The notes: generated by a model from the letters alone, not told the origin. A stretch of DNA of 64,000 bases from Candidatus Levyibacteriota bacterium (GCA_016186645.1 JACPLF010000003.1:4112-68111), one strand, 5' to 3'; positions 4,126 through 40,839 are shown, counted from the stretch's first letter. Translations and numbers: made by a program.

Positions 4126-4701
4126 ATGATTTTGGGGCCGAAAGATTTATTAAAATTAGTCAAAACAAAAAAGCTCGTTGAGGGTTTGTCAGAAAGAGAA
4201 CTGACCAATCCTGAAGGAGCTGGGTTTGATTTGCGCTTGGGGGAAGTTTATTCAATTTCCGGCAACGCTTTTTTGGGCGAAACGCATCGGAAAACCGCGG
4301 ACATAAAATTAGTTGCACAATATAGACATATAAAAAAAATAAGCGATCGCATTAAAAAATCAGATATTAAGACCCAAAAAATTGAGATTAAGCCTGGAGA
4401 TTTTTTCCTGGTCAAGACAATCGAATCGGTAAATATGCCCCAAAATTTAACCGCGAGCATAACTCCAAGGTCTACAACTTACCGCTCGGGTTTGTTTCTT
4501 CGCACGGGAAATGTGCAGCCCGGTTACTGCGGGGGATTGATTTTTGGTTTGAAAAACGAAGGACCAATAACAGTCGAAATCGAAATGGGCGCGAGATTTG
4601 TCCACATCCAGTTTTCGCAAGTCAAAGGCGGGGGAAACATGTACCGCGGCCAATGGCAAGGCGGCCGAGTAACCGCGAGAAAAAAGGAAAAACAGGTTTA
4701 G
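4126..4701 (+). CDS. dCTP deaminase/dUTPase-family paralog
   Basis: MILGPKDL...GFDLRLGEVY N-terminus and C-terminal beta-jellyroll motifs (PGYCGGL). Contains an in-frame copy of the AGCGATCGCAT element at 4342-4352. Confidence 0.7.
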   Translation: MILGPKDLLKLVKTKKLVEGLSERELTNPEGAGFDLRLGEVYSISGNAFLGETHRKTADIKLVAQYRHIKKISDRIKKSDIKTQKIEIKPGDFFLVKTIESVNMPQNLTASITPRSTTYRSGLFLRTGNVQPGYCGGLIFGLKNEGPITVEIEMGARFVHIQFSQVKGGGNMYRGQWQGGRVTARKKEKQV

Positions 4702-4719
4702 TTTTTGCCATTTTGACCA

Positions 4720-4748
4720 TTGACAAAGTTGTAACGGTTGTGTATACT
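4720..4748 (+). promoter_or_regulatory. consensus sigma70 promoter TTGACA-N17-TATACT driving dinJ-yafQ
   Basis: -35 at 4720-4725 (a second TTGACC at 4713-4718). TG then TATACT at 4741-4748. Confidence 0.6.
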
Positions 4749-4827
4749 TCTGTTATCCCAGCAAAATTCTTACTTGCGCCCGAATACTACGTGTTCGCGT
4801 CGCAAGAGCGAACGTGCGGGACAAGCT

Positions 4828-5103
4828 ATGCAGACTGTAATTCATATTAGAGCGGACAAGGAAGTTAAGAAAAATGCGGTTGAGGCTGCCAAGGCACTTG
4901 GTTTGAGCTTGAGTGACGTTATTAATGCCGCGCTTCGCAATTTTATAAGGACCAGAGAGGTAATTTTTTCCAACACTCCGCAAATGACTCCGGAGCTCGA
5001 AAAGTATTTGGGTAAAATAGATAAGGATATTAAGCATAGGAGAAATCTGGTTGGTCCTTTCTATAGCGCCAAGGAAATGGACGAATACCTCGATTCCAAA
5101 TGA
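4828..5103 (+). CDS. dinJ: DinJ/RelB-family antitoxin
   Basis: MQTVIHIRADKEVKKNAVEAAKALGLSLSDVINAALRNFI matches the DinJ N-terminal RHH region. The stop overlaps the downstream toxin start (ATGA). Confidence 0.8.
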   Translation: MQTVIHIRADKEVKKNAVEAAKALGLSLSDVINAALRNFIRTREVIFSNTPQMTPELEKYLGKIDKDIKHRRNLVGPFYSAKEMDEYLDSK

Positions 5104-5357
5104 TAATTCAATTACACAAAACCTTCAAAAAACAATACGAAAAACTAACTAAAGCACAAAAAATAAAATTTAAAGAAAGAAGGAGTATTTTTCTTCAAGA
5201 TGAATTTAATCCTGTTCTTAATAACCACGCTTTGAAAGGCAGGTATCAGGGATACAGGAGTATAAATGTTACAGGAGATATAAGGGTGATTTATGAAAAC
5301 AGCTCAGAAGACGTAGTTTTTGTAAAAATAGGCTCCCACAGCAAGCTGTACGGATAA
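5100..5357 (+). CDS. yafQ: YafQ/RelE-family mRNA interferase toxin
   Basis: 85 aa with LKGRYQGYRSINVTGDIRVIYE...VVFVKIGSHSKLY, a RelE/YafQ fold signature. Translationally coupled to the antitoxin. Confidence 0.8.
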   Translation: MIIQLHKTFKKQYEKLTKAQKIKFKERRSIFLQDEFNPVLNNHALKGRYQGYRSINVTGDIRVIYENSSEDVVFVKIGSHSKLYG

Positions 5358-5457
5358 ATAGTCTTATTGCATCGGGGGAGAAAGTTTGTTACATTAGAAA
5401 AGCAAAATAAAAAACTTAAGCGGAGAATATCAATATCTTGATTTACTGAAAGACGTT

Positions 5458-6366
5458 TTGGAAAACGGAGTTAAGAACGTGGATCGGGGGACTGGTGCAG
5501 TTTCTTTCGGCGTTTTTGGAAGACAAACCCGTTATGATTTGTCAAAAGGTTTTCCTCTTTTGACTACGAAAAAAGTCTATTGGAAAGGAGTTTTGCACGA
5601 GCTTTACTGGTTCATAAAAGGGGATTCAAATATTAAATATCTGGTGGACAACAATGTTCATATTTGGGACGATTACCCATATAAAATTTATAATTCAAAA
5701 TCTAGAATTCAGAATTTACAACCATTAACCAAAGAAGAATTTGTTGAAAAGATTAGGACGGATGATAAATTTGCAAAAAAATGGGGAGAATTGCCAAGAA
5801 TTTATGGAGAAATGTGGCGACGCTGGCCCGCCCGCAATCGAACCATAGACCAATTAGGATGGGTTATTAAAGAGATCAAAGAGGACCAATATGCGCGAAA
5901 TCTGATTGTGACTTCATGGAATCCTGAATATTTATATACAATGGCAATCAACAAAGATGCCTCCCGTTTTCCGATTTGCCACAACATGTACCAAATATCA
6001 GTTAAAGGTGGGAAATTAAATTTGCAGTTATATCAGAGAAGCGCAGATTTGTTTCTCGGCGTGCCTTTTAATATTGCTTCTTATGCCCTTTTGACAATTA
6101 TTCTGGCCCGCGTCACAGGATATAAGCCCGGAGAATTTGTTCATACTTTCGGAGATGCACACATTTACAAAAACCATATAGAGCAGGTTAAAGAGCAGCT
6201 TTCTCGGAAGCCCTATCCTTTTCCAACAGTAAAAATTGATCCAAAAGTCAAAAAACTTTCGGATTTTCAGCCGTCGCTAGTTTATTTAGAGAATTATAGC
6301 TCTCGTCCTCCGATTAAAGGCGAATTAACTGTCGCAGGGGGGCTATATGAAGGAAAGAAAAAATGA
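5458..6366 (+). CDS. thyA: thymidylate synthase (the annotated TTG start is uncertain; see findings)
   Basis: The ThyA N-terminal helix EYQYLDLLKDVLENG lies in-frame upstream of the TTG and after a TAG at 5395-5397. The downstream protein has the ThyA signatures RRWPAR, SWNPE and the catalytic PICH. Confidence 0.85.
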   Translation: MENGVKNVDRGTGAVSFGVFGRQTRYDLSKGFPLLTTKKVYWKGVLHELYWFIKGDSNIKYLVDNNVHIWDDYPYKIYNSKSRIQNLQPLTKEEFVEKIRTDDKFAKKWGELPRIYGEMWRRWPARNRTIDQLGWVIKEIKEDQYARNLIVTSWNPEYLYTMAINKDASRFPICHNMYQISVKGGKLNLQLYQRSADLFLGVPFNIASYALLTIILARVTGYKPGEFVHTFGDAHIYKNHIEQVKEQLSRKPYPFPTVKIDPKVKKLSDFQPSLVYLENYSSRPPIKGELTVAGGLYEGKKK

Positions 6367-6896
6367 AGGTTAGTATCATAGCAGCCATAGGGCAAAATAG
6401 GGAATTGGGGAAAAATAATAAATTAATCTGGCATATTAAAGAGGATTTACAACGATTTAAAAGTCTCACCAAAGGTCACCCAATCATAATGGGGCGAAAA
6501 ACATGGGACTCTTTGCCTTTCAAACCCTTGCCGAGTAGAACAAATATTATTATTACTCGGGATGAAACCTTTGCCCCTCATGAAAATCATCACAAATTTA
6601 GCAATTGCAAAAGTTGTGAGGGTTTAGGATTAGCTGTTGTTTACTCCTTAGTCCAAGCAGTTGAACTTGCAAAAAATTCACCGGGAAGCGAGAATGTTTT
6701 TATTATTGGCGGAGGGCAAATTTATAAAGAAGCGATTGAAAAAGGATTGGCGGATAAACTTTATTTAACTCTTGTTGACAGGACTTTTGATGCAGATACT
6801 TTTTTCCCTGATTATTCGCAGTTTAAGAAAATAGTTTTTGAGGAAGAACACGACAGCGGAGGATGCAAATATAGATTTTTGGAATTGGAACGATAA
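6363..6896 (+). CDS. folA: dihydrofolate reductase
   Basis: MKVSIIAAIGQNRELGKNNKLIWHIKEDLQRFKSLTKGHPIIMGRKTW is the classic DHFR N-terminus. There is a 4-nt overlap with thyA. Confidence 0.85.
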   Translation: MKVSIIAAIGQNRELGKNNKLIWHIKEDLQRFKSLTKGHPIIMGRKTWDSLPFKPLPSRTNIIITRDETFAPHENHHKFSNCKSCEGLGLAVVYSLVQAVELAKNSPGSENVFIIGGGQIYKEAIEKGLADKLYLTLVDRTFDADTFFPDYSQFKKIVFEEEHDSGGCKYRFLELER

Positions 6897-6915
6897 ATAG
6901 TTTATAATTATACCC

Positions 6916-8259
6916 ATGACTGAACTGGGAATCGGGCGAAAAGAAATACTCTCTCAAAGAGAAAGACTATCGGATGAACAGTTGGGCAATTTAATTTCTG
7001 CAGTAGGAAACCTTGAAGGAAAAGCAATTACTCTTCTTTTGATGGAACAAGGAAGAATCTATTCAAAGGGGAACCTTTATCATAAATTTATGGGAGCGCA
7101 AGAAGAAAGAATCGGATGGAAACCTGATCGTGCTATTCCTTTTCAATATTGTCAATTTTCTCTTCTTCCAATTGGTCTTGTTGCACTCGGGGAAAAAGAT
7201 CATGATCTTAAAACCTGGGGATATGGAGTAACTCCCTATGGAGAAGAAGAAGGTATTCCATTGGCAGGACTTCTTCTTGATTTCTCAGAAAAACACCCTG
7301 AATTCTCTTTATCGCAGGTTTTTGGGTCAACGAATTCACCCTCTCAGCCTAAAAATATCCAAACACCTGAAGGTGAGACTGAATTTAAATCTAGATCCCC
7401 TATTCTAAGACTTAAAATCTTCCGGAAGCTTATCGCAGCTAAACTGCCTATAAGAGAATCAGATCTTGCCAGTACAATAGGAGAAAATGCTGGAATGATA
7501 GGTCGACATTTAGCTCTCCTTGCAGATTCGCATATTATTTCCTACGAATCGATAAGAAAAGACCAGCCACAATCCTTCTATGCGCTTTCTTCAGAAAAAC
7601 CAAATGAGAGGCTAACACAGCATAGCGCCTTTTCTTCCCTAACTGAAAAAGTATACAGCTTCTTTCTTAACTTAGGTCCATCAAAACAAATAACTCTTGA
7701 GGATATAACAGACTCTCTTATTGCTGCTAACTCTGAAATGGGAAAATTAAATAAACAGGCTTTAAAGCGCAGGATTAGCACGATCTGTAGTTATCTTGCA
7801 AAACAGCACTATCTTGTACAAGGAAAATTTAAAGAAGGTTTAGAATCAGAAATTACTCTTTCAGATACTCAAAAAGCAACTCTTCTTGAGCTCGTTGCTC
7901 TTATAAATAGATTTCAAGGACAAGAGCCAGAAATTCTTGAAGAGGGAAGAAGAAAAGCTATGAAAATCATTCATAATCCCCACAGGGTATCTCATCTTCT
8001 GAGAAAAGCTAAAGAAAGCTCAGGACGCGCCAATAAGCTATCCCAAGGAGAGGGTGCGGATTTTGTTCTGTCCCTAATAAAAGAGCATCCAGGAGCAAGC
8101 GTTGAAGATATTTTCAAATTCCAGGATAGGAAACCAAGACTTTCAATGGCAAATATAGGCGTTATCGTTCATCGTCTTAGAGGAAACGATAGAGTCTCTG
8201 TTTCAAGAAGAACAGTGAAAAACCGTTTTACAGCAGTGGATTCAGAAAGGGAGAATTGA
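6916..8259 (+). CDS. hypothetical 447-aa protein with several tandem winged-helix (ArsR/MarR-like) modules
   Basis: Repeated segments of the form xxDLASTIGENAGMIGRHLALLADSHIISYE. TATAAT at 6903-6908 lies 7 nt before the ATG. Confidence 0.5.
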   Translation: MTELGIGRKEILSQRERLSDEQLGNLISAVGNLEGKAITLLLMEQGRIYSKGNLYHKFMGAQEERIGWKPDRAIPFQYCQFSLLPIGLVALGEKDHDLKTWGYGVTPYGEEEGIPLAGLLLDFSEKHPEFSLSQVFGSTNSPSQPKNIQTPEGETEFKSRSPILRLKIFRKLIAAKLPIRESDLASTIGENAGMIGRHLALLADSHIISYESIRKDQPQSFYALSSEKPNERLTQHSAFSSLTEKVYSFFLNLGPSKQITLEDITDSLIAANSEMGKLNKQALKRRISTICSYLAKQHYLVQGKFKEGLESEITLSDTQKATLLELVALINRFQGQEPEILEEGRRKAMKIIHNPHRVSHLLRKAKESSGRANKLSQGEGADFVLSLIKEHPGASVEDIFKFQDRKPRLSMANIGVIVHRLRGNDRVSVSRRTVKNRFTAVDSEREN

Positions 8260-8274
8260 TTCTAATTTACATAT

Positions 8275-9591: not shown

Positions 9592-9673
9592 GACTTTTAA
9601 TCCGGGCATTTAATCACCAATTTTTAGAATTCAAACTGCTCTCAAAAACAAATTTAGACATCTGATTATTTAC

Positions 9674-9684
9674 AGCGATCGCAT
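9674..9684. repeat. AGCGATCGCAT (HIP1-like 11-mer) copy; five identical copies in the window
   Basis: Copies at 4342-4352, 9674-9684, 23653-23663, 34208-34218 and 40775-40785. Each continues into similar A-rich ATCA(G/T)A context. Confidence 0.7.
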
Positions 9685-9713
9685 AAAAAAATCAGATAAC
9701 TAAATGTAAATTT

Positions 9714-9867
9714 ACCCCGTTACCCAATGTCCCATCCGTTAGGATGCGGGTTTCTAGTGGCGTGAAGCGAAAATTCAATAATGCCCGGACCCGCTTCGCC
9801 CAAGCTCCCGCCTAGACTCGGCGAGGCTGGTCAGCGAGGCGAGCCGTAAGGTCGTGGGTAACGGGGT
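9714..9867. repeat. 154-bp MITE-like element with 13-bp perfect terminal inverted repeats; the interior carries a 57-mer that is also present inside dnaX
   Basis: ACCCCGTTACCCA at 9714-9726 and TGGGTAACGGGGT at 9855-9867. Interior 9788-9844 matches 25870-25926 at 55 of 57 positions. Confidence 0.7.
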
Positions 9868-9978
9868 TTACTGAATTCCTGTTATTGTAAGACTGAGGTG
9901 TCAAGCTAACACACCCCAGGGGTGTACGAGGGGAGTGTTCTGTCAGGAAAAAGTCGAGTTGAAAATGAAATCATCTTA

Positions 9979-9987
9979 TGCTATAAT
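9979..9987 (+). promoter_or_regulatory. extended -10 promoter TGCTATAAT, 8 nt upstream of the ATG at 9996 (leaderless start)
   Basis: Sequence tgctataat ccgatagt ATG. Confidence 0.5.
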
Positions 9988-9995
9988 CCGATAGT

Positions 9996-11522
9996 ATGAT
10001 AGGCACAAAGGAAGCAGTTTCTCGTACATTTCCAGAAACTCTAAGTGGAGAGCAAAACAGCTTCGTAGGTTTTATTGACCAAAATAGAGATCTTTTTGAG
10101 AGACATACTTCTTCGACTTATGAGTTAAGAGATGAACGAGATGGCTGGAGAAATTCTCCCACGATAAGTGAAGTGGCGCATAAGCACGCAGTTCTGTCAC
10201 TGCCTCTTAGGGGGGGGCATAATGCGTCTCCTCCAAACACCAGAGAATGGAAGCGGCATGAAGAGAGGATAAGAGATGCTATCGATAGGGAAATCTTTAG
10301 CAGCCCTGATGGAAAAAATACTTTGCCTGCAAAGCGACCGCCTCTTGATTCAATTTGGGCGAAAACAACTCCTTTACAAAGAGCTGAAATACAAGAATTA
10401 ATGGGCAGGACTGAAGAATTTCAAGCAGACTTCCTTGCGGCAATAGCGCCTTTAGCCGCAGAAGTTGAACAATTAAAAGAGGAATTATTTTCCAATTTCA
10501 AAAATTATCTGTTTTCAGATCCTGACGGCATTTTCGCCGTTAGAGATTTCCTAACAGATAAAAAATTCGCGTCTCAGAGAGAAACCATAAGACCTTTTCT
10601 TGCCAGTTTTGTTCAGAGTGAAGATAAGTTAGCAAAAGACGGCAAGAGAGGAATATTGGGCGAGACAGTTAAAAAGTGGGCAGATGAAATTTCGAAAAGA
10701 GTAACTCCAGTTCTTGTTGACGAATTTGTTGAGTCTATTAGAAATCCTAATGTTCTTGAATGGCTGGAATTTGCAGCAAATATGCCTATAAGCGTTCTGG
10801 GTACAACTGAGGAAAGGGATAAAGATTTGATAAGAGATAGCATTGTCAGTTTTCTTAAGAGCCGTCCGGATGTTTCTTTTTGGCCGCCAGAACTCAAAAA
10901 AGCATTATCCTCTTTTGCTTCATCTAAATATGCTACCGCGCGTTCTTCTGTAGAAAAGGGGTTAGAAGGGTTTAGAAGACCGTTGAGTTCAAAACCGGCA
11001 CCGCAGATCCATCTGGAACCAGAAAAGAAAATAGAAGGGGCGCCTGTTCAGGAAGATGCCAAAAAAGAACCAGATGATAAAAAAGGTGCATCAGAAAAGG
11101 CTGAAAAAAGAAAATATCCGATTGGGATATTGACAAAAGAAAGCGGATCGTCGCATGGGTTTGACATTAGGGTTTTAACAGAAGAGGAACTGAAAGATTT
11201 TTTACGAGAAAAGGCTGATTCTTTTGCTTCTTCGGATTTAAAAATGGCGGGAGATTTTAGAACTATAGTTGCCAGTCTGCGAGAGGATCCTTATGGGTTT
11301 GGCACAAAAAAACTCAACAACATGTCTGTTGGAATTGGTAAAACAAAAAGTTCTCCCATTCGAAGCATGGATCCTGGAAAAAGAATCGGCCTTCATCTTG
11401 AACATCCGGAATCGCAGAAAATTAGAATTGCTTATGTTATTTATGGAAGCGGAGACGATAAAGTAATTGTTATTGAAGGAATTTATAGTCATGATGATTA
11501 TGACAGTAAATTTGGAGCATAG
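9996..11522 (+). CDS. hypothetical 508-aa protein with a C-terminal RelE/ParE-like toxin fold
   Basis: C-terminal about 100 aa (LKDFLRE...DPYGFGTKKLNN...IRIAYVIYGSGDDKVIVIEGIYSHDDY) follows the RelE/ParE pattern. The N-terminal 400 aa are unrecognised. The gene is GC-richer than the flanking sequence. Confidence 0.5.
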   Translation: MIGTKEAVSRTFPETLSGEQNSFVGFIDQNRDLFERHTSSTYELRDERDGWRNSPTISEVAHKHAVLSLPLRGGHNASPPNTREWKRHEERIRDAIDREIFSSPDGKNTLPAKRPPLDSIWAKTTPLQRAEIQELMGRTEEFQADFLAAIAPLAAEVEQLKEELFSNFKNYLFSDPDGIFAVRDFLTDKKFASQRETIRPFLASFVQSEDKLAKDGKRGILGETVKKWADEISKRVTPVLVDEFVESIRNPNVLEWLEFAANMPISVLGTTEERDKDLIRDSIVSFLKSRPDVSFWPPELKKALSSFASSKYATARSSVEKGLEGFRRPLSSKPAPQIHLEPEKKIEGAPVQEDAKKEPDDKKGASEKAEKRKYPIGILTKESGSSHGFDIRVLTEEELKDFLREKADSFASSDLKMAGDFRTIVASLREDPYGFGTKKLNNMSVGIGKTKSSPIRSMDPGKRIGLHLEHPESQKIRIAYVIYGSGDDKVIVIEGIYSHDDYDSKFGA

Positions 11523-11960: not shown

Positions 11961-11974
11961 CACACTATGTATAT

Positions 11975-12071: not shown

Positions 12072-12142
12072 CCCGCCTAAGCTTGCTTTGCAGCTTTTCA
12101 GTATTATTCATACACGCTGCAAAGAGCGCTTTAGCGGCGGGT
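12072..12142. repeat. CCGCCTAAG...CTTTAGCGGCGG palindromic element (family 2), copy in the rpsB 5' leader
   Basis: Arms cccgcctaagc and gctttagcggcggg, with an inner gctttgcagc/gctgcaaagagc hairpin. Homologous copies at 23554-23614 and 23768-23910. Confidence 0.6.
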
Positions 12143-12154
12143 AAAGGGAGAAAT

Positions 12155-12973
12155 ATGAGAGAAATTACACTGGAAGAATTATTGGAGGCAGGCTGTCATT
12201 TTGGCCACCAGGTCACAAGAAGCAATCCCAAGGCTCGTGATTTTATATTTGAAGCCCGCGATAATATCCACATTATTGATTTAGCCAAAACAAAAGAAGG
12301 GCTCGTTGAGGCCGCCGCTTTTGTCAAAGATTTAGCATCCAAAAATGGAACTTTGGTAGTTGTCGGAACAAAAAGACAGGCAAAAGCGATTGTGGAAGAA
12401 GCCCTACGCCTTGCTCAGGATAAAGGAGCAGGGGAAGGACTTTATTATATAACTAACCGTTGGGTTGGAGGACTTTTGACAAATTTCTCCGAGGTTTCCA
12501 AAAACTTTAAAAAATATGCAGATTTCGTAACTGATTTGCAGGATGACGAAGTAAAAGCAAGATATACAAAAAAAGAAATAGGCGGGTGGGAGAAAGAAAG
12601 CCGCAAGTTGGAAAATCTTTACGGCGGAGTTGCGAAAATTACAAAAAAACCTGATGCATTATTTATTATCGACTCCCATTTGGAAGATTTGGCAGTTAGG
12701 GAAGCTTTAGCTACACATATTCCAACTGTCGGAATAGTTGATACAAATGCAGACCCGGCTGTTTTAGACTATCCAATTCCTGCCAACGACGATGCAGTCG
12801 GTTCGATAAAATTAATCGTAAGCTATATAATTGATGCGTGGATAGAAGGCCGCAAGGAAGCCGAACTAAGAATTAAGAATGAAGAATTAAAAGTTAAAAA
12901 AGAAGCTGAAAAGGCAGAAGCAAAAGCATCTAAGGTACAAGTTAAAACCGTTGCAAAAAAGAAAAAGAAATAA
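12155..12973 (+). CDS. rpsB: 30S ribosomal protein S2
   Basis: MREITLEELLEAGCHFGHQ N-terminus. SD AAGGGAG at 12144-12150. Confidence 0.95.
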   Translation: MREITLEELLEAGCHFGHQVTRSNPKARDFIFEARDNIHIIDLAKTKEGLVEAAAFVKDLASKNGTLVVVGTKRQAKAIVEEALRLAQDKGAGEGLYYITNRWVGGLLTNFSEVSKNFKKYADFVTDLQDDEVKARYTKKEIGGWEKESRKLENLYGGVAKITKKPDALFIIDSHLEDLAVREALATHIPTVGIVDTNADPAVLDYPIPANDDAVGSIKLIVSYIIDAWIEGRKEAELRIKNEELKVKKEAEKAEAKASKVQVKTVAKKKKK

Positions 12974-23537: not shown

Positions 23538-23553
23538 GAAGTTCCCGCCTAAG

Positions 23554-23614
23554 CTTACCGTTCGAACACGTCAGACGTGTTTCATGGAGCGCTTTAGCGG
23601 CGGGCAAGTAGTTT
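23554..23614. repeat. family 2 palindromic element, copy b
   Basis: cccgcctaagctt...gcgctttagcggcggg with an inner aacacgtcagacgtgtt hairpin. Confidence 0.6.
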
Positions 23615-23767
23615 TTATTTGATTTCCGATCAAAAGATATATGACTACAATCAGCGATCGCATAGTAATATCATACATTATCTATGATCATAGCTGTAAC
23701 GCTTGAGTGGATTAAATGGGTATTTACTCTATTTTGGGTTTGGAGTAGAATAGAAAGTGGTAACGTG

Positions 23768-23910
23768 TCCGCCTAAGTTCAGTATTCGCCTTTCCCGCCT
23801 GCAACGCTTTGCGAAGCAATGCGGGCAGGTCAATTCTATTCGCGTAAAGCGACGTGGTCGCCACGCGACTTTACGTCGAATACGGCTCATACTTCACTTT
23901 AGCGGCGGAC
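23768..23910. repeat. family 2 palindromic element, copy c (longer, with extra internal hairpins)
   Basis: tccgcctaag...cactttagcggcggac. Internal cgtaaagcgacgtgg/ccacgcgactttacg pair. Confidence 0.55.
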
Positions 23911-23970
23911 GTAAGAAACTGTAATTCCAAATTAAAATTTGGAAACAGTTTCTAACGGAGGTGATTATTT

Positions 23971-24704: not shown

Positions 24705-26291
24705 ATGGTTTTTTATCGAAAATATCGTCCGCAAAAAATAGAAGAGCTGGATAGTAAAGAAGTTAGGGACAAACTTCATAGTGTTTTGGGAAGCTCCTCT
24801 GTTTCTCATGCTTTTCTTTTTACAGGCCCCAAAGGTTTGGGAAAAACCTCAGCTGCAAGAATTGTCGCAAAAGTCCTAAACTGTGAAAAGGTGAGAAATG
24901 AGAAAGGAGAAATGAAAAATAAAGATAAAACTTCCCATCTCTCATCTCTCACTTCTCATTTCCGTGCGGTTGAGCCGTGCAATAAATGTGAACAATGCAT
25001 CTCGATTACACGCGGAACAAATCTAGACGTTTTGGAAATAGATGGTGCTTCAAATAGGGGAATAGATGAAATAAGAGATCTTAGGGAAAAAGTAAAACTT
25101 TCTCCAGCCGGGAGCCGCAAAAAAGTTTATATTATCGATGAAGTTCACATGTTAACCGCAGAAGCGTTTAATGCGCTTCTTAAAACTTTGGAAGAACCGC
25201 CAAGTCATGTTGTTTTTATTCTCTGCACAACAGAACCTCACAAAGTGCCAAGCACAATTCTGTCCCGTTGTTTACATATTCAATTTAGAAAAGCAACAGA
25301 GGCAGAACTGGTCAGATCGTTTGAAAGAATAATTAAAGCGGAAAAAATAAAAGCCGACAAAGAAGCCTTAGATTTAATCGCTAGTCTTTCAGACGGTAGC
25401 TTTAGAGACGGATCAAAACTTTTGGAAGAAATAGCTCTTTTGGCAGGACGTAAAAAAATTGCAAAAGAATTGATAGAAGAAAAATATTATGTATCAAGTA
25501 TTAAGTATCATATTAGAGCGATGGTGAAATGTTTGGATGCGAAAGACACAAAAGGAGGACTTGAACTTGTTTCAAAGCTGACAGAACAGGGCATTGACAT
25601 GAAGTTTTTTATTGAAGAATTAATACAGACTCTCCATAGTTTGTTACTTCAAAAAGTAGGGATTAAGAATGATCAAGAATTGGAAGTTCAAATTCTAGAC
25701 TTTGATATCAATGGAATCAAAAGACTGGTAGAATTATTTGCAAAAGCGCACAGCGAATTAAAATATGCGGTTTTGCCCCAGATTCCTTTGGAGCTGGTGA
25801 TTGTGGAATGGGGAATCCAGAAAACTCAGAATACTCAGCAATCCGGCAATTCTGATAATCAGACGATCAGACCCGCTTCACCGAAGCTCCCGCCTAGACT
25901 CGGCGAGGCTGGTCAGCGAGGCGAGCAATCTGATTCTCCGAGTATTCAGAAAATGGTGAAAGCACAAAAAAATGAAATACCGCTTAATGTTGCTCAGCAG
26001 AATATGATGGGGTACAGTGAGAATAATGCGTTGTGGGTCTCTTTGATAGATAGAGTGAAGGCTTACAATCATTCTATTGCCGGGGTATTGCGCGGATGCA
26101 GGATAAAAAGTTATGATGGTAAGAGTTTAATAATAGAAGCAAATTTCAAATTCCATAAAGATAAATTAGGGGAAATAAAAACACAACAGGTTTTGGAAGA
26201 AGCATGCAAAGAAATTACGAAGAAAAATGTTAAAGTAGAAGTGATGATGAAACCCGCCGTCGCTAAAGCTTTGGCGGGCGATGGGAGGTGA
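24705..26291 (+). CDS. dnaX: DNA polymerase III subunits gamma/tau
   Basis: MVFYRKYRPQKIEEL, GPKGLGKTS P-loop, a zinc module with CNKCEQC, and a box VII LSRC sensor. Carries nested GC-rich repeat inserts at 24930-24965 and 25857-25943. Confidence 0.9.
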   Translation: MVFYRKYRPQKIEELDSKEVRDKLHSVLGSSSVSHAFLFTGPKGLGKTSAARIVAKVLNCEKVRNEKGEMKNKDKTSHLSSLTSHFRAVEPCNKCEQCISITRGTNLDVLEIDGASNRGIDEIRDLREKVKLSPAGSRKKVYIIDEVHMLTAEAFNALLKTLEEPPSHVVFILCTTEPHKVPSTILSRCLHIQFRKATEAELVRSFERIIKAEKIKADKEALDLIASLSDGSFRDGSKLLEEIALLAGRKKIAKELIEEKYYVSSIKYHIRAMVKCLDAKDTKGGLELVSKLTEQGIDMKFFIEELIQTLHSLLLQKVGIKNDQELEVQILDFDINGIKRLVELFAKAHSELKYAVLPQIPLELVIVEWGIQKTQNTQQSGNSDNQTIRPASPKLPPRLGEAGQRGEQSDSPSIQKMVKAQKNEIPLNVAQQNMMGYSENNALWVSLIDRVKAYNHSIAGVLRGCRIKSYDGKSLIIEANFKFHKDKLGEIKTQQVLEEACKEITKKNVKVEVMMKPAVAKALAGDGR

Positions 26292-34046: not shown

Positions 34047-34244
34047 ATTAAATATTATATTTATTCTAAGTTTAAACTGCAATCATAAGAAAAAATAAAA
34101 ATTGCACATAAAAAAATAAGAGTTTTATACTTTTTCAGCGCGCAAGTAATACCTGCAAAGTGTTTATTAAAAGCACCAAAGACAAAATTAGGTATATAAC
34201 TACTTAAAGCGATCGCATCAAATTATTATATACGTAAATGTTAG

Positions 34245-37200
34245 ATGGTCTGTAGGATTTTCCCCATTGCAGACTATACCTTCTTGCACTACAGTTTAAT
34301 AGTGAGATTATTTGCTCGTAATCTTTTATTCATCATTTCTTTCATTTTCCTTTTGTTATTTCCCTCAAATGTAAGCGCGGCAGAATTGCAGCCGGGAAGC
34401 GTTTGGCAGTGGAATGATGCATCCGCCTCTGCAGTTACTCAAAAACAAGGTTTAAGCAATGTAGCTTCTGTTAGTATAGGTCGTGATCATAGTCTTGCTT
34501 TGGAAAGTGACGGTACTGTGTGGGCATGGGGAAATAACCAATACGGGCAGTTGGGTAATGGAGAGAGCGGAGGAAGCCTTGTTGATCCGGTTCAAGTAAA
34601 ACTTTTGGGAGGTGGTTATCTGACGGATGTTAAAGGTATTTCCGCAGGATACAAATGGAGCATTGCCATTAGAAATGATGGGACAGTTTGGGTGTGGGGC
34701 TACGATGGATATGGAGCAAGAGGAGCAGGAGTAGGAAATAATGACAGTGACAGCAAGCTTCTCGTAGCAACGCAGGTTAAAGGTCCAAGCAACTTTCTGC
34801 AAATTGTTGCAATAGCCGCAGGAGATAATCACAGCATTGCGCTAAAAGCCGACGGAAGTGTCTTTGCATGGGGATTAAATAATAATGGGCAAGTGGGTAT
34901 CGGCTGTTATTTATATAATTGTAGTCGAATCGATAGTCCAGTTAAAGTTCTCGACAATGCTATTGCAATTGCCGCAGGCGGACATCATACCCTTGCGGTG
35001 AAAGCAGATCAAACGGTTTGGGGATGGGGAAGAACAAGTGAAGGACAGTTGGGATCTATCACCGGTAGTTTTGGAGTTCAGGGGTCTCCTATCCAAATTC
35101 CAGGAATTTCCGGAATAAAAAATGTTTGGGCAAAAACAAACTGGAATGTCGCTTTGTCTAATAATGGAAGCCTATTCGGTTGGGGACATGGGAGTTATAC
35201 ATATTCTGGCGATAGAAATCCGAAACAAGTATCTGGTTTAGGCGAGGTAACGTTGGCGGCTGTTGGACAAACGATTTTTGCTCCAGTTGGTATTGCTGTA
35301 AAAGGCGATGGGACGTTATGGTGGTGGAATGCCGAAAATAATAGTAATCCAACACAGATTTCAACCCTTTCAAACATCGGCTCTGTTGCAGTCGGTTTGT
35401 TTACTCCTAGTCTTGCTTCGGTTTTCCTTCCAGCTCCAACCCCAACTCCGACACCAACACCTACTCCCAAAACTCCTTTAATCTTAATTCCCGGCATCGG
35501 AGGGTCAGAGTTGAAAGTTGTCGAGGAAACATATTGGTTAGAAAAAGATGATGGGCATGGAGGAAATTTTAATTATATTTATCCTACGGACGAAACAGTT
35601 TGGCTAAATGAAGACAAAGCAAAGGATTTTGGTGAAGATGACTATTTTGATGTTTTGAGAATGAAAAATGATGGTATAACTTCCGAAGCAAATATAGGGA
35701 TTACTGAAAACTTGCTAGGTAGAGCTTACCAGGGGACAATAGATTTTTTTATTTCCAACGGTTACGAATTAAATAAAAATTTTTTTGTTTTTCCTTATTA
35801 TTGGAGAAAAGATATTGCATTAACAGCATTACTTCTTAATGAAAAAATAAATGAAATAAAAACACAAACGGGGAGTCAAAAAGTGGATATTGTTGCTCAT
35901 AGTATGGGAGGACTGGTGGCTAGAAATTATATATCCGATGTGACAAAAGCTCAAAATGTCAGAAAATTATTTACTTTAGGAACCCCGCATCTGGGGTCAG
36001 TGGATTCGTTAAAGAATTTGAGATACGGCGCTTGCCTAACTCCTTTGCCTATATCATTAGGCCCATTGTGCCTAGGAATAGCAGATACAGAAACAAATGA
36101 TGTTGTTCAGAATATGGTTAGTGTATTTCAATTAGTACCAAGTCAAGCTTATTTTAATTTTTATTCCGGAGAAGATAATCAGCACCCATTTCCCTATAGA
36201 ACAGAATCAGGAACTTTGAACTATATGCAAATTAAAAATTTATTAACCGGTCTTAATTTTAACACGCCTCTTTTTAATCCCTCTGAAGCTTTTCATACTC
36301 TGGATAATTCGTTATTCAGTACGAATGGCGTTGATGTAACGTTAATTGCAGGTTCCGGCCAAAAAACTTTGGGGCAAATTGTTGAAGAAAAAAGGACTTC
36401 CTTGTTGGGAATTCCATATATTCATAAAGACACAATTAATATCAATGGCGATGGGACAGTTTCGCTTTTTAGCGCTTCTCTTAACGACTCCGATAATGGT
36501 ATTTCTTTTTTGGGTAATGCAAAAGTTTTTTATACGAAGCAGGATCATGGTAATCTGGTTTCTTCGGGGTCAGCATTAAATCTCATAAAAAATATTTTAA
36601 ACGATGATAATCAGTTGCCTGTTGGAGTTTCTGCCCAACCCTATTTTTTCAGTGGAAGTCAAATTTCCGTGCATTCTCCTGTTAACATTCATGTTTATGA
36701 TTCATTGGGAAACCATACTGGCCCAACAAGCAATGGAGATTTTGAAGCGAATATTCCAGGAAGTTCTTACGATACTTTGGATGATGCTAAATTTATTTGG
36801 CTTCCGGATAACGGACAGTATGATATTAAATTTGAAGCAACTGATCAGGGTAGTTTTGATTTCAAAATCAGAAAATATGAAGATGATGAAAATACGGAAA
36901 CTATACTCTATAAAGAAATTCCATTAGCCAATAATACAAAAGCGGAAACTTCATTTGATACTCAATCTTCAGAAGTTCCCATTATTAGAATTGATGAGGA
37001 TGGAAATGGCAATTTTGACTTTAATATAGAGCACTTCAGTATTTTGGAAGGAGATGCAAATTATGATTATACTCCTCCAACTATCTCCTCAGCTGTTAAT
37101 CCAAAATCTATCTGGCCGCCAAACAATAAGATGGTTAATGTAAATATTACAGGCGCTATAACTGATGAGAATCCATATTTAGTAACAATCTTGGTTGATG

Positions 37201-37400
37201 ATGAATATGACTTAATTGAACCTTCAATAACTATCCAGAATCAGACAAATATTAATGAAACTATAAAGTTGGAAGCTTCAAGAAAAGGTGGCGATAAAGA
37301 TGGGAGGAAATATACAATAAAAATATTGGCTACGGATCTGGCTGGAAATACTTCGCTTTCTATTGCAGAAGTAATTGTTCCGCATGACCAGAGGAAATAA
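34245..37400 (+). CDS. 1051-aa secreted multidomain protein: RCC1-like repeats, PT linker, alpha/beta-hydrolase lipase domain (GHSMGG), C-terminal Ig-like region
   Basis: Signal peptide. GRDHSLALESDGTVWAWGNNQYGQLG repeats x6-7. PTPTPTPTPTP at about 35437-35470. VAHSMGGLVARNY. C-terminal KYTIKILATDLAGNTS. Confidence 0.75.
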   Translation: MVCRIFPIADYTFLHYSLIVRLFARNLLFIISFIFLLLFPSNVSAAELQPGSVWQWNDASASAVTQKQGLSNVASVSIGRDHSLALESDGTVWAWGNNQYGQLGNGESGGSLVDPVQVKLLGGGYLTDVKGISAGYKWSIAIRNDGTVWVWGYDGYGARGAGVGNNDSDSKLLVATQVKGPSNFLQIVAIAAGDNHSIALKADGSVFAWGLNNNGQVGIGCYLYNCSRIDSPVKVLDNAIAIAAGGHHTLAVKADQTVWGWGRTSEGQLGSITGSFGVQGSPIQIPGISGIKNVWAKTNWNVALSNNGSLFGWGHGSYTYSGDRNPKQVSGLGEVTLAAVGQTIFAPVGIAVKGDGTLWWWNAENNSNPTQISTLSNIGSVAVGLFTPSLASVFLPAPTPTPTPTPTPKTPLILIPGIGGSELKVVEETYWLEKDDGHGGNFNYIYPTDETVWLNEDKAKDFGEDDYFDVLRMKNDGITSEANIGITENLLGRAYQGTIDFFISNGYELNKNFFVFPYYWRKDIALTALLLNEKINEIKTQTGSQKVDIVAHSMGGLVARNYISDVTKAQNVRKLFTLGTPHLGSVDSLKNLRYGACLTPLPISLGPLCLGIADTETNDVVQNMVSVFQLVPSQAYFNFYSGEDNQHPFPYRTESGTLNYMQIKNLLTGLNFNTPLFNPSEAFHTLDNSLFSTNGVDVTLIAGSGQKTLGQIVEEKRTSLLGIPYIHKDTININGDGTVSLFSASLNDSDNGISFLGNAKVFYTKQDHGNLVSSGSALNLIKNILNDDNQLPVGVSAQPYFFSGSQISVHSPVNIHVYDSLGNHTGPTSNGDFEANIPGSSYDTLDDAKFIWLPDNGQYDIKFEATDQGSFDFKIRKYEDDENTETILYKEIPLANNTKAETSFDTQSSEVPIIRIDEDGNGNFDFNIEHFSILEGDANYDYTPPTISSAVNPKSIWPPNNKMVNVNITGAITDENPYLVTILVDDEYDLIEPSITIQNQTNINETIKLEASRKGGDKDGRKYTIKILATDLAGNTSLSIAEVIVPHDQRK

Positions 37401-37405
37401 AGCAA

Positions 37406-37654
37406 TTATTTTTTCGACTTTGATTTATTGAGGAATATTTTCCAAATTCCCCAAATAACAACAAACCAGAAAGCGATATCTAGAACCAAAACTGAATAGT
37501 TTGTGCTTGCAGTGCCGAATAAAGCATAGGAACCAAATTTAAATGGTAATCCGGATTGATTTGCGGAAGGATTAGCTAAAGCATCTATAATGGCAAATCC
37601 ATAAGTCGCAACTATACTTAATATCGAAATAACCACGAGTGATTTTTTGGTCAT
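37406..37654 (-). CDS. small membrane protein (82 aa)
   Basis: Two predicted TM helices; convergent with the large gene. Confidence 0.4.
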   Translation of the reverse strand: MTKKSLVVISILSIVATYGFAIIDALANPSANQSGLPFKFGSYALFGTASTNYSVLVLDIAFWFVVIWGIWKIFLNKSKSKK

Positions 37655-37840
37655 AACTTTTCTTGATAATTTACTCTACACATTTACCATATCACAAAAT
37701 CCATTTGTCAACAACTGGTCGTTGCTCATTTAACTAAATACAGCGGCCGCTGTCTATATTTAAATGCCTAATTTTGCAAGAAAAATCTCTGTTGACATAT
37801 GAAGTTGGAGAGACTACTATAATTAATATGGAGAATTCAG

Positions 37841-38533
37841 ATGGCTGCTGCTAAAAAAACTGCAAGTACCACGTCAAACGCGGCTCATGCAGAAGCACAG
37901 AAAAAAACTGAAGCACAGAGCGAGAAAAAGGAACCAGTGGTTGTTGCAGATACTGTGATAGAAACCACAGAAAGAGTTGAAGTAATCGAAGAGACAACCC
38001 CAGAGCCCAAATCAGATCCTTTAACTGATTTTAAAGCAAAAATGAGCGAGGAAGAAAAGCAGCCGGCCGGGAGCAGCCCGCCTCAAAAAAATTTCATGTG
38101 GCCGATACTTTTTGTTTTTGCAGTCGCTCTTCTAATGTTAGGGGGAATTTTTCTTTATAAAAATAATATAAAAGTCGAGAAGATTAATGTTGTCACACTA
38201 ACTCCTACTCCAACAGTCATGCCCGAACCAACCAAGGCGGTCGATCTGACAAAATATGAAATTGAAATTCAAAATGGAAGCGGAATCAGCGGAGAAGCAT
38301 CAAGACAGCAGGAGAATCTGGAATCAGAAGGATTTACGGTATCTTCTATAGGTAATGCGGATAATTCAGATTATACAGAGACAATTATTCAGGCAAAGGA
38401 AACAGTAGAGGCAGCTTTTCTTGATAAATTAAAAAGCGTTCTTGAGGAGTCGTTTGTTGTTGGTGAGACGGAAGAATTGCCGCAGGACGCAGACTCTGAT
38501 GTAATTGTAATCTTGGGCAGTGAAACAAATTAA
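37841..38533 (+). CDS. membrane protein with a LytR_C-like C-terminal domain
   Basis: Single TM. EIEIQNGSGISGEASRQQENLESEGFTV...VIVILGSE. Confidence 0.6.
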   Translation: MAAAKKTASTTSNAAHAEAQKKTEAQSEKKEPVVVADTVIETTERVEVIEETTPEPKSDPLTDFKAKMSEEEKQPAGSSPPQKNFMWPILFVFAVALLMLGGIFLYKNNIKVEKINVVTLTPTPTVMPEPTKAVDLTKYEIEIQNGSGISGEASRQQENLESEGFTVSSIGNADNSDYTETIIQAKETVEAAFLDKLKSVLEESFVVGETEELPQDADSDVIVILGSETN

Positions 38534-38542
38534 TACCCCTCC

Positions 38543-39559
38543 ATGAAGAAATTGGGAATCGGTCTTCTTATAATTTTAATAATCTTGGGATTATTTTTTA
38601 TTTTAAAAGATGTTGATCGCCAAAAAGAAAGAGTAAAAGAAAAACCCCTTGCCAAATATACTTTTGAAAACCTAAAGAAGAAACAGTTTCTGTCACTTCC
38701 TGTTGCTCTTGGACATGTTTTAGACGAAGATGAAAATATTATTTCTCAAATGTTTTATTTCAATATTCGCGAAACGATAGATGGAAAAAGCATGCATAGA
38801 AAAGTGAGCGGGCTTATAAATGTTCCAAAGCTTGAAGGCACGTATCCTGTTATTGTCATGATGCGGGGATTTGTCCCAAAGGAAATTTATACAACAGGAA
38901 TTGGTACGCAAAGAGCAGGAGAATTTTTCGCGCAAAATGGTTTTATAACTATAGCGCAGGATTTTTTAGGTTACGGACAGTCAGAGAATCCGTCAGGGAA
39001 TTCAATAGAGGAAAGATTTCAAACACATACAACAACTCTTACCCTTCTGTCTTCTCTGGTTAATTTAAATAATGGGCTTGATGCAAGTTATTCGGGAAAA
39101 ATTAAAGCAGATACTTCAAAAGTTGGGATTTGGGGACATAGCAACGGAGGACAGATTGCATTATCAGTCCTTGAGATAACCGGGAAAAATTATCCAACAG
39201 TTCTTTGGGCGCCTGTTTCAAAACCTTTTCCATATTCTATATTTTTCTTTATGGATGACTTTGATGATCATGGAAAGGCGTTAAGAAAGGTAGTTGCAAA
39301 TTTTGAAAATGATTACGATATTGAGCTGTATTCACCAAGTAATTTTTATTCTTGGATTAATGCCCCAATCCAAATTCACCAAGGGACAGCAGATGATTCA
39401 GTGCCTCCTAAATGGTCGGATCAGCTGAATAAAGATTTGGAAAAATTGGGAAAATATATAGAATATTTTGTTTATCCGGGAGCAGATCATAATTTATTGC
39501 CTGGTTGGGAAACAGCAGTGCAGAGGAGTTTGGATTTTTACAAACAGAAACTGCTATAA
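38543..39559 (+). CDS. secreted alpha/beta hydrolase (S9/dienelactone-hydrolase-like)
   Basis: GHSNGG nucleophile elbow and a GADHNL histidine motif. Confidence 0.65.
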   Translation: MKKLGIGLLIILIILGLFFILKDVDRQKERVKEKPLAKYTFENLKKKQFLSLPVALGHVLDEDENIISQMFYFNIRETIDGKSMHRKVSGLINVPKLEGTYPVIVMMRGFVPKEIYTTGIGTQRAGEFFAQNGFITIAQDFLGYGQSENPSGNSIEERFQTHTTTLTLLSSLVNLNNGLDASYSGKIKADTSKVGIWGHSNGGQIALSVLEITGKNYPTVLWAPVSKPFPYSIFFFMDDFDDHGKALRKVVANFENDYDIELYSPSNFYSWINAPIQIHQGTADDSVPPKWSDQLNKDLEKLGKYIEYFVYPGADHNLLPGWETAVQRSLDFYKQKLL

Positions 39560-39567
39560 TCCACAAT

Positions 39568-40221
39568 ATGTTTAAGATACAAAAATTCGATCTTTTGGTT
39601 TCTGTTTACATATTCTGCATATGCGTTGCAGAGCTGATGGGTGGAAAAACATTTCCTCTTTTGACAATTGGAACATTCAAGCTAAATGCCAGTGTAGCAA
39701 TTTTTGTCTTGCCTCTTATTTTTACGATTAATGATGTGATTACGGAAGTTTATGGAAAAGAAAGAACAAGAAGCGTTATTAGATCAGGATTATTTATTAT
39801 TTTTTTAATTTTTGCATTTTCTATATTTGCCACAAGTCTTCCTCCATCAATGAGATTTGTTGCTTCCGAAAAAGCATACGATACAATCTTTGGTTTGTCT
39901 GCCAGAATTGCAGCCGCATCCTTAACAGCTTTTACATTGGCTGAATTTATGGATGTTTTTATATTCGCAAAAATAAGAGAGATATTGGGAAAAAAAGCGT
40001 TGTGGCTTAGAAACAATGCATCTAATTTTGTTTCGCAATTTGTAGACACGTCTGTTTTTATGTTCTTGGCATTTTATGCATTTGACAAAGGTTTTGGCGA
40101 TAATTTTGCTTTTTTAGTTAGTTTAATTCTTCCATATTGGTTATTAAAATGTTTCATGTCAATTATAGAAACACCTCTTGTTTATCTGGGAGTTAATTGG
40201 CTTAAGAAAGAGAAAAAATGA
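39568..40221 (+). CDS. yhhQ: queuosine-precursor transporter YhhQ (VUT/DUF165 family)
   Basis: FTINDVITEVYG motif. TGCTATAAT at 39552-39560, 7 nt before the ATG. Confidence 0.75.
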   Translation: MFKIQKFDLLVSVYIFCICVAELMGGKTFPLLTIGTFKLNASVAIFVLPLIFTINDVITEVYGKERTRSVIRSGLFIIFLIFAFSIFATSLPPSMRFVASEKAYDTIFGLSARIAAASLTAFTLAEFMDVFIFAKIREILGKKALWLRNNASNFVSQFVDTSVFMFLAFYAFDKGFGDNFAFLVSLILPYWLLKCFMSIIETPLVYLGVNWLKKEKK

Positions 40222-40766
40222 AAGTCATAATGGTTGCGGTCTCCTCAATAAATGGCAAAATTACAAGAGGTTTGGATCCCAATATTTACTCCTGGACTTC
40301 CAAGGAAGACACGAAGTTCTTCTTCTCTTTAATAAAAAAACACAGTCTTATCGTAATGGGCTCAAAGACTTACGAAACAGTAAGAAAAGTTATTAAACAC
40401 GAAAAGGATAAATTAAGAATAGTTCTAACAAGAGAACCTAAAAAATATTCAGAAGAGGCAAAAAAGGGAATGTTGGAATTTACCAATGAAAATCCCTCAA
40501 AACTTATAAAAAAAATGGAAAGCAGGGGATATAAAAAATTGTTAATTGTTGGCGGTGGAACGATTAATACTTTATTTTTAAAATCAAAACTTGTGAATGA
40601 AATATATTTAACCTTCGAACCAAAAATCTTCGGCTCAGGAAAAAATTTAATAAAAGAAGAAAACCTTGATATTACATTAAAATTAATTAGCGCCAAAAAA
40701 CTCAATCGCCAGGGCACTACGCTTTTGAAATACAGAGTGAGTAAAATGAAAGGCTATGACATATGA
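40218..40766 (+). CDS. dihydrofolate-reductase-like (RibD C-terminal domain) protein
   Basis: MKVIMVAVSSINGKI...LIVMGSKTYE...LLIVGGGTINT. 4-nt overlap with yhhQ. Confidence 0.7.
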   Translation: MKVIMVAVSSINGKITRGLDPNIYSWTSKEDTKFFFSLIKKHSLIVMGSKTYETVRKVIKHEKDKLRIVLTREPKKYSEEAKKGMLEFTNENPSKLIKKMESRGYKKLLIVGGGTINTLFLKSKLVNEIYLTFEPKIFGSGKNLIKEENLDITLKLISAKKLNRQGTTLLKYRVSKMKGYDI

Positions 40767-40839
40767 TTATTTTAAGCGATCGCATGATAAAATCATACAT
40801 CAGAAATGTTAGATGTGACATAATTAGCTTTATTAATTT

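Follow-up and report, generated by a model that had tools for sequence, protein, structure and literature searches.

A ~45-bp palindromic element in Candidatus Levybacteria as a candidate operator of autoregulated PaaX-like repressors

The 11-mer AGCGATCGCAT occurs five times in a 64-kb stretch of the genome of a Candidatus Levybacteria bacterium (GCA_016186645.1, JACPLF010000003.1:4112-68111), hereafter the window. Each copy lies at the centre of a ~45-bp quasi-palindromic element. In related metagenomic contigs, elements of the same architecture occur in the promoter and inside the coding sequence (CDS) of genes for PaaX-family proteins. We regard the elements as the likely cognate operators of autoregulated PaaX-like repressors, which would have spread as ~45-bp units to promoters and into protein loops. 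On this view, the five copies would probably be bound by a PaaX-like repressor that is specific for GCGATCGC and whose gene lies elsewhere in the genome. In this study, 64 kb of genome was analysed, and all evidence is computational.

A ~45-bp element around the 11-mer

The five copies of the 11-mer are located at 4342, 9674, 23653, 34208, and 40775, all on the + strand; 0 are expected from 100 dinucleotide shuffles. The initial annotation had pointed to these five positions and to their similar context. Both observations hold, and the context is larger than described. In an ungapped alignment of the five copies anchored on AGCGATCGCAT, the conserved block extends from about -19 to +25 and includes ~23 invariant positions. 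The consensus, tAGAyATaTrAyTA-N5-AGCGATCGCAT-N-A-N-AA-N-ATyAkAyA, is a ~45-bp quasi-palindrome with AT-rich, symmetric arms (ATATGAyT ... ArTCATAT) around an 8-bp GC-rich palindromic core, here GCGATCGC. A 42-nt degenerate pattern matches all five copies with 0 mismatches, and no sixth copy was found in the 64-kb window even when 3 mismatches to this pattern were allowed. The copies are as follows.

4323..4367, + strand: element copy 1 of the GCGATCGC family, part of the dcd2 reading frame, encoding ...RHIKKISDRIKKSDI...
4126-4701: dcd2, the second dCTP-deaminase paralog, which carries the 4342 copy as KISDRIKKSD
9655..9699, + strand: element copy 2, 66 nt past the glyA stop codon, with a GC-rich structured segment from +32
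23634..23678, + strand: element copy 3, between a HIT-family gene and rpsU-ybeY-dnaX
34189..34233, + strand: element copy 4, promoter type (TATATAACTA..core..ATTATTATATA), between divergently transcribed genes
40756..40800, + strand: element copy 5, over the final codons of a RibD_C/DHFR-like gene (40218-40766), 65 nt 5' of msrB (40840)

Translation confirmed the annotated in-frame position of the 4342 copy in the dcd paralog and its KISDRIKKSD peptide. The A-rich tail with ATCA, attributed to every copy, is present in four of the five; the 34208 copy reads ATTA. A continuation shared by two copies, AAATGTTAGATG, is indeed present in both, and its coordinates are corrected to 34236-34247 (not 34232-34244) and 40804-40815. 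In copy 4, ATG occurs at +30 (34238) and at +37 (34245, the start of a 1051-aa RCC1/lipase gene). An ATG or the 5' end of a structured RNA lies at +30 to +32 in several copies.

The octamer GCGATCGC is identical to the cyanobacterial HIP1 (highly iterated palindrome 1), and it contains GATC and CGATCG; the copies had accordingly been annotated as HIP1-like, with the Dam and PvuI sites as a frame. HIP1 is hyper-abundant as a bare octamer across cyanobacterial genomes, at roughly one per kilobase. In the window, by contrast, the octamer occurs five times (0.48 expected), or 1 per 12.8 kb, and all five are inside the 11-mer copies. None lies outside the 42-nt pattern, and the context is always the oriented 45-bp one. 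The host belongs to Candidatus Levybacteria (Candidate Phyla Radiation, CPR/Patescibacteria), has ~38% GC, and is neither a cyanobacterium nor a phage. Its DnaX and DCD2 are 100% identical to proteins of a Candidatus Levybacteria metagenome-assembled genome (MBI2613251.1 and MBI2613226.1). A phage origin was considered and rejected, as megablast of the 33-42 kb segment against phages gave no match and a motif scan of viral contigs returned 0.

Within the window, CGATCG occurs 10 times (6.8 expected; 16 of 100 shuffles reach 10), and seven of the 10 hexamers fall in the GCGATCGC family and a second element family with the core CCGATCGG. GATC is under-represented (162 vs. 210 expected). Since neither is enriched outside the elements, the reading as HIP1, Dam, or PvuI sites fails. 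What had been called a recurrent building block survives as a CG-rich palindrome common to several element families, but the CGATCG hexamer itself is not enriched. Relatives keep the same architecture with cores that partly lack GATC (GCGGCCGC and ACGGCCGT); GATC methylation is therefore not the common denominator. A strict 35-nt degenerate pattern searched against 185,579 species genomes gave two chance matches only (Bacillus and Nostoc), so the exact form of the element is very narrow; this, too, speaks against HIP1. Despite the identical octamer, an oligonucleotide bias of the HIP1 type or one linked to restriction or methylation (AsiSI, PvuI, or Dam sites) is barely credible. A scan of Joint Genome Institute (JGI) metagenomes with the 35-nt pattern yielded two true relatives, contigs L008 and L009.

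The symmetry of the element was analysed with twenty copies aligned without gaps. Mirrored positions are complementary in 65% of cases, compared with 29-41% after sliding of the partner. At four mirrored positions, the two sides have changed concordantly; the covariation score is 0.212 vs. 0.153 in shuffles. Such dyad symmetry, and the good folding of the 9674 and L008 copies (-7.6 kcal/mol), would suit an RNA or single-stranded DNA hairpin or a cruciform that serves as a terminator, attenuator, mRNA stabiliser, or recombination hairpin. However, the inner 7 + 7 nt are mostly non-complementary. Hairpin z-scores of the five window copies are +0.9, -4.7, +1.0, -0.7, and +0.2, and the three copies with positive values fold no better than shuffles (dG 0, -0.7, and -3.1). 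No T-tract follows the element, a promoter copy would sit 5' of its own transcription start, and 5' of the 34208 copy there is no gene in the same direction that it could terminate. The hairpin or terminator idea was rejected on the folding z-scores, and we rate a role of the element as a nucleic-acid structure as very improbable. Because the dyad symmetry is real but the single-strand hairpins are weak and inconsistent, a protein site is preferred; symmetric protein contacts fit better than nucleic-acid structure. No Rfam family or tRNA was found over the motifs.

PaaX-family genes and their two sites

In related genomes, the context of the element recurs and is tied to the promoter and the interior of a PaaX-family gene. 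On L009, one copy is located 30 nt 5' of the ATG of a 264-aa gene, and the second is in frame inside the same gene. The intragenic copy encodes SDRIKKSD, the same peptide as in dcd2 of the window. This shared frame is not evidence of a functional peptide, because it is forced by stop codons: with TAG at -19 and TGA/TAA at -11, neither of the remaining frames is open.

The 264-aa protein matches the Pfam families PaaX_M (Cas2-like) and PaaX_C. The match to NCBIfam TIGR02277 (PaaX) scores 72 bits, below the equivalog cut-off of 265 bits, and a profile match to the E. coli PaaX structure 8a39 has an E-value of 4e-10. The protein also carries a Cas2 signature (WRIVMFDVEE...GFGMLQKSVF) that scores 33.7 bits against an NCBIfam Cas2 cut-off of 24.5, and the PADLOC Cas2 profile matches as well. 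A homolog search returned 481 proteins at E <= 0.001, whose named sources are Levybacteria and Roizmanbacteria. In the five loci fetched, the PaaX-like gene is convergent with rplA and adjoins rplJ/rplL or a glycosyltransferase gene; rplA is followed by rplK-nusG-secE where the contig extends far enough. The gene has apparently been inherited vertically.

Eight PaaX-like genes from related metagenomic loci were compared, and a window paralog (gene 50674) was added as the ninth. The eight relatives have two sites per gene, one in the promoter (P site) and one in the CDS (I site). At the P site, the core directly follows a perfect TTGACA, TTATATA comes 17-18 nt on, and the ATG is ~6 nt further. 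Given this short distance, the transcript is probably leaderless. Across the nine genes, the putative promoter has TTGACA abutting the core or within 7 nt of it, then a -10-like TTATATA or GAAAAT, and then the ATG. The P-to-I spacing is 660 bp in five loci, 674, 652, and 654 bp in the other three, and 673 bp in the window paralog. The core is the same at the P and I sites within a gene and different between paralogs or species. The cores are listed below by contig.

L009, L013-16, L017-19, and L020: GCGATCGC at the P and I sites
L029: GCGATCGC at the I site only; the contig starts 12 nt before the ATG, short of the P core
L027: ACGATCGT at the P and I sites
L021-23: GCGACCGC/GCGGCCGC (GCGRCCGC) at the P and I sites
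Second paralog on L021: ACGGCCGT at the P and I sites
L024: GCGATCGC/GCGACCGC at the P and I sites

The peptide encoded at the I site follows the DNA core and reads SDR, NDR, SGR, or DGR. S-D-R is encoded by AGC-GAT-CGC in all five lineages, for which the expected probability is 0.011 per lineage from the codon usage of the window. The fixed codons and the core-tracking peptide therefore indicate that selection acts at the DNA level and that every paralog has a site of its own. Self-recognition, i.e., autoregulation, would be the most economical reading of these paralog-specific sites. Two arm types were distinguished: intragenic-type copies carry TGATT-N22-AATCA (ATGATT/AATCAT), and promoter-type copies carry TAACT/AGTTA (ATAACT/AGTTAT). 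Copy 4 of the window (34208) is closely similar to the promoter copies of the PaaX-like genes on L009, L013, and L017.

Two further observations concern these genes. A helical phasing of the 652-674-bp spacings was rejected as not robust, being near-integral at 10.5 bp/turn and not at 10.4. On L017 (3557-3564; also on L018 and L019), a third, armless GCGATCGC is found at the end of the PaaX-like gene (GGA TTA GCG ATC GCC TAA), 158 bp after the intragenic site.

The window paralog and its two sites are as follows.

50674..51306, + strand: PaaX-family paralog of 210 aa with a PaaX_M Cas2-like domain and no PaaX_C
50634..50668, + strand: CCGATCGG-family element, GACA-N7-CCGATCGG-N7-TGTC, over the promoter TTGACA-17-GAAAAT, 8 nt before the ATG at 50674
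51307..51341, + strand: second CCGATCGG-family element, beginning 1 nt behind the gene 50674 stop codon; distance to the first element, 673 bp

The direct repeats around this gene and their related palindrome CCGATCGG had been recorded in the initial annotation, and the repeat length is 35 nt. Gene 50674 has the same two-site plan as its relatives, with CCGATCGG in place of CCGATCGC. The gene is truncated, and the second copy is retained at the same distance though it now lies beyond the stop codon. Different PaaX-like paralogs have different cores, and that of gene 50674 is CCGATCGG.

The promoter at 50637-50665 (TTGACA-17-GAAAAT) ends 8 nt before the ATG of gene 50674. Elsewhere in the window, an extended -10, TGCTATAAT, at 9978-9986 lies 9 nt before the ATG at 9996. 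The starts at 9996 and 50674 leave no room for a Shine-Dalgarno sequence, which suggests a high frequency of leaderless mRNAs in this organism.

The promoter copies of the PaaX-like genes read TTGACA-N18-TATATA with the ATG ~6 nt on, which raises the alternative that the element is a promoter module. It would mark strong or co-regulated promoters, possibly of an alternative sigma factor, and the palindrome would be the spacer or discriminator. All five window copies are oriented along transcription, the ATG or structured-RNA ends at +30 to +32 would fit, and TATATA stands at the corresponding place in the 34208 copy. Nevertheless, the -35 equivalents of the five copies are poorly conserved (AAATAA, TTTACA, CAATCA, CTTAAA, and TTTTAA), and a consensus scan calls none of them and only the promoter of gene 50674. 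Intragenic copies have no gene to drive; that of L009 lies ~50 codons before a convergent gene. Moreover, a spacer needs no perfect palindrome that co-varies between two sites per paralog. We consider the promoter module improbable. Extracytoplasmic function (ECF), sigma-54, and sigma-28 promoters and LexA, NrdR, and DnaA boxes were also considered and rejected, since their consensus does not fit the element.

Probable operators of PaaX-like repressors, or copied repeats

The binding site of E. coli PaaX is a long-spaced inverted repeat, TGATTC-N27-GAATCA, and the protein represses its own promoter, Px, by occluding RNA polymerase (PMC9493321). The Levybacteria system resembles it in the protein family and in the position of the putative operator over the promoter of the regulator itself; the TGATT/AATCA half-sites of the intragenic-type copies recall the E. 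coli box. Because the element recurs in the promoter of the PaaX-like gene and ~660 bp inside that gene, it is most likely the site of the PaaX-like protein. The differences are also clear. The Levybacteria proteins score 72 bits against the equivalog cut-off of 265, and no paa genes were among the genes examined. The arms of the element are more closely spaced and surround an additional 8-bp centre, invariant, GC-rich, and palindromic, that carries the paralog specificity, and a second copy ~660 bp inside the CDS of the regulator is obligatory. Finally, the units are dispersed, and some are in frame in unrelated CDSs.

The following mechanism is proposed. The cognate protein would be a PaaX-family protein in which a winged helix at the N terminus is followed by a Cas2-like domain and then PaaX_C, encoded by the gene conserved next to the rplJL/rplKA cluster. 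A dimer or tetramer bound to the promoter copy would block RNA polymerase and repress its own gene, as at E. coli Px. The intragenic copy may serve as an auxiliary operator, through looping between the two sites or as a roadblock. The five window copies would be additional sites for the same protein and might form part of its regulon. The 34208 copy overlaps a promoter-like -10 just 5' of the RCC1/lipase gene; the 40775, 23653, and 9674 copies are located 5' of msrB, rpsU, and a structured RNA, respectively. The 4342 copy may be an in-frame passenger or an auxiliary site in dcd2.

Auxiliary intragenic operators are known from lac O2 in lacZ and gal OI in galE. In those systems, the second operator is in a CDS, a few hundred bp 3' of the one at the promoter, and the I sites of the PaaX-like genes are placed similarly. 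In contrast to them, the candidate second operator described here is in the regulator's own gene and dictates a conserved peptide, and the ~660-bp distance is kept across paralogs of differing specificity.

Repressors that control their own promoter through an operator there are already known. New are the lineage, the tripartite 45-bp site with a paralog-specific core, the obligatory CDS site that dictates a peptide, and the spread of the unit into CDSs. In the library searched, no paper linked PaaX with Patescibacteria, and no published account of transcriptional regulation by PaaX-like proteins in CPR/Patescibacteria was found. The genes and their sites offer a testable candidate regulator-operator pair with a natural specificity series of five cores, each matched to a paralog. 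They also present a regulator whose own CDS is shaped by its putative operator in a fixed two-site architecture.

Several observations weigh against the operator interpretation. No GCGATCGC-type regulator gene is present in the 64-kb window. The conserved information (~23 invariant positions) is far above what a transcription-factor site needs in a ~1-Mb genome; this excess suggests descent by copying and not convergent selection. One copy on L020 is directed into a convergent gene at its 3' end, an odd place for an operator, and two window copies are in-frame insertions in CDSs (dcd2 and a FolC-like gene). The arms differ between promoter-type (ATAACT/AGTTAT) and intragenic-type (ATGATT/AATCAT) copies, and the TGATT-to-AATCA spacing is 22 nt vs. 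29 in E. coli PaaX. At the dcd2 site, arms and core all differ from those of the ortholog on contig L030, in flanks that are ~90% identical. The AlphaFold model of the PaaX-like protein (mean predicted local distance difference test, pLDDT, 52) is too poor to confirm the winged helix.

The ~45-bp elements are copied as discrete units, and permissive loops of proteins accommodate them in frame. L020 has a third copy, 47/48 identical to the P site of this contig (copies at 610 and 2903), with sharp boundaries and flanks that are unrelated; it is the one directed into the convergent gene. The position of the 4342 copy was compared in 120 DCD2 orthologs (P0241-P0360; window 4320-4370). Thirty-eight have no insert, and 66 have an insert containing (D/G)R. 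Loop inserts vary from 0 to 28 aa across species; some are palindrome-encoded (D/G)R peptides, and others are unrelated low-complexity sequences (ASTKASAR, LRLRSGQEVK, and SGKRSASRI) that look like translated GC-rich repeats. The DCD2 loop is thus an indel hot spot and a permissive landing site. In L030, whose DCD2 protein is 84% identical, a GCGGCCGC-type element of the same length occupies the dcd2 site. The syntenic region of L030 has no element after glyA; the 9674 copy is therefore not conserved.

The window itself has two elements of the GCGGCCGC family.

1166..1211, + strand: GCGGCCGC-family element with arms ATTTAAC..GTTAAAT, in frame in the FolC/Mur-ligase-like CDS 401-1957
37724..37769, + strand: GCGGCCGC-family element, CATTTAACTAAATACA-GCGGCCGC-TGTCTATATTTAAATG, intergenic, with its core at 37743, ~90 nt 5' of a LytR_C gene (37841)

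The first of these (1185) coincides with a 21-aa insertion of the FolC-like protein that is absent from the L030 ortholog. Annotators should be aware that translated DNA elements account for some of the lineage-specific insertions in proteins of CPR genomes. The window has 37 GC-rich 8-bp palindromes, among which a dyad score of at least 15/23 was reached only in the three element families (99.9th percentile of the background, 13).

Copying of this kind is also what selfish miniature repeats would show, such as REPIN/RAYT or Rickettsia palindromic elements. In that case, the PaaX-like gene would be the home locus and regulation would be secondary; the Cas2-domain protein would recognise 45-bp non-autonomous palindromes and perhaps nick or mobilise them. 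This explanation draws on the sharply bounded 47/48 identity on L020, the in-frame insertion in the FolC-like protein that a close relative lacks, and the DCD2 hot spot (38/120 empty, others with different element families or unrelated repeats). The Cas2 signature above its cut-off, an information content too high for a transcription-factor site, and the odd position of one L020 copy point the same way. A gene flanked by cognate repeats, with one family per paralog, is the logic of RAYT and REP pairs (PMC3337134; bioRxiv 10.1101/2022.05.22.493013). Short dispersed imperfect palindromes, a single-copy vertically inherited gene with cognate repeats at its flanks, and the pairing of repeat families with distinct paralogs are common to both systems.

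The partner gene, however, belongs to a known repressor family and encodes a PaaX-like/Cas2-like protein, not a Y1 transposase or a recombinase. Its synteny is conserved in the five fetched loci, apparently by vertical inheritance, and the upstream copy is built into the -35/-10 in every paralog, as expected under autoregulation. The copies at its flanks are in direct, not inverted, orientation, and one is intragenic. Unlike REP and REPIN sequences, the elements are singletons starting with TTAG/ATAG, not inverted doublets. They have no GTAG or CGTC tag, their hairpins are weak and not stable, their density is low (~1 per 9-25 kb), and not all are extragenic: two of the seven dispersed window elements are inside CDSs. 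No target-site duplications were seen. A Y1_Tnp gene on L030 (PF01797, 18942-19625, between tsf and frr) has no adjacent GC-core palindrome scoring at least 13. On this evidence, we think a selfish repeat, including one nicked or mobilised by the Cas2-domain protein, unlikely; if it were true, a new class of protein partner would be added to the REPIN/RAYT paradigm.

The palindromic elements of Rickettsia, which Ogata et al. reportedly described in 2000, are said to be selfish repeats of 100-150 bp inserted in frame in protein genes. The elements studied here are like them in being palindromic repeats tolerated in frame in surface or variable regions of housekeeping proteins, here dcd2 and FolC-like. 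They differ in length (~45 bp vs. 100-150 bp), in being mostly intergenic by gene starts, and in being tied to the gene of a cognate DNA-binding protein.

A further reading, which we also think unlikely, is that Levybacteria, and perhaps other Microgenomates, harbour undescribed systems of repeats and guardian genes. Families of ~45-bp palindromes, each with its own 8-bp NCGRYCGN core, would propagate in the genome, also in frame into housekeeping proteins. They would depend on the cognate, vertically inherited PaaX-like protein, with its Cas2-type nuclease fold and catalytic-Asp motif. Such systems, if true, would be a functional parallel to REPIN-RAYT with an unrelated protein, and a case of a Cas2-like domain acting on palindromic DNA outside CRISPR.

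Neighbouring genes, structured segments, and other repeats

Housekeeping genes of the window include the FolC/Mur-ligase-like gene, two dcd paralogs, tmk, thyA, folA, glyA, dnaX, rpsU, ybeY, and msrB. Elements cluster at folate and thymidylate genes: 1185 in the FolC-like gene, 4342 in dcd2, 9674 after glyA, and 40775 at the end of the RibD_C/DHFR-like gene. A bare CCGATCGG in tmk at 3661 was counted in this cluster. The clustering was recognised post hoc, and it could hint at a regulon theme or be a sampling effect of the window.

Apart from its element, the FolC-like protein (window 401-1957 vs. L030 1-1138) has a 43-aa Ser/Pro-rich insert, and L030 has a different 27-aa insert elsewhere. 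Lineage-specific low-complexity inserts seem common in these proteins.

No tRNAs were found in the window, and Rfam gave nothing at the gathering threshold in the whole window. Two GC-rich structured segments follow elements. The first, at 9706-9872, is a GC-rich island in an AT-rich genome with a long closed fold (RNA minimum free energy (MFE) -70.9 kcal/mol, z -3.8), and the closing stem begins 32 nt past the 9674 core. Rfam had no match at E <= 1 for 9600-10000. The element may drive transcription of the island, which could be a structured RNA missing from the annotation. The second, at 23767-23910, lies between the 23653 element and rpsU (23971) (MFE -64.8 kcal/mol, z -4.9) and may be a structured leader of the rpsU-ybeY-dnaX operon. 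This segment had no credible Rfam match, and at 23911-23958, ~230 nt 3' of the 23653 copy, only weak, implausible matches (mir-240 and CRISPR-DR50) were obtained.

A hairpin family closed by CCCGCCTAAGC ... GCGCTTTAGCGGCGGG occurs at 12072-12160, 23544-23607, and 23768-23912 and is distinct from the 45-bp element. A 57-nt GC-rich direct repeat (GACCCGCTTCRCC.AAGCTCCCGCCTAGACTCGGCGAGGCTGGTCAGCGAGGCGAGC) is present twice, at 9788-9845 and 25870-25927. Its second copy is inside the dnaX CDS (24705-26291) and is another small repeat in frame in a housekeeping gene. Four independent Logan contigs of the same organism (L001, L002, L003, and L005) end at 9831, inside the first copy. Between dcd2 and thyA, a ParE/YafQ-type toxin-antitoxin pair is present in both genomes (window 4738-5357; L030 12314-12843).

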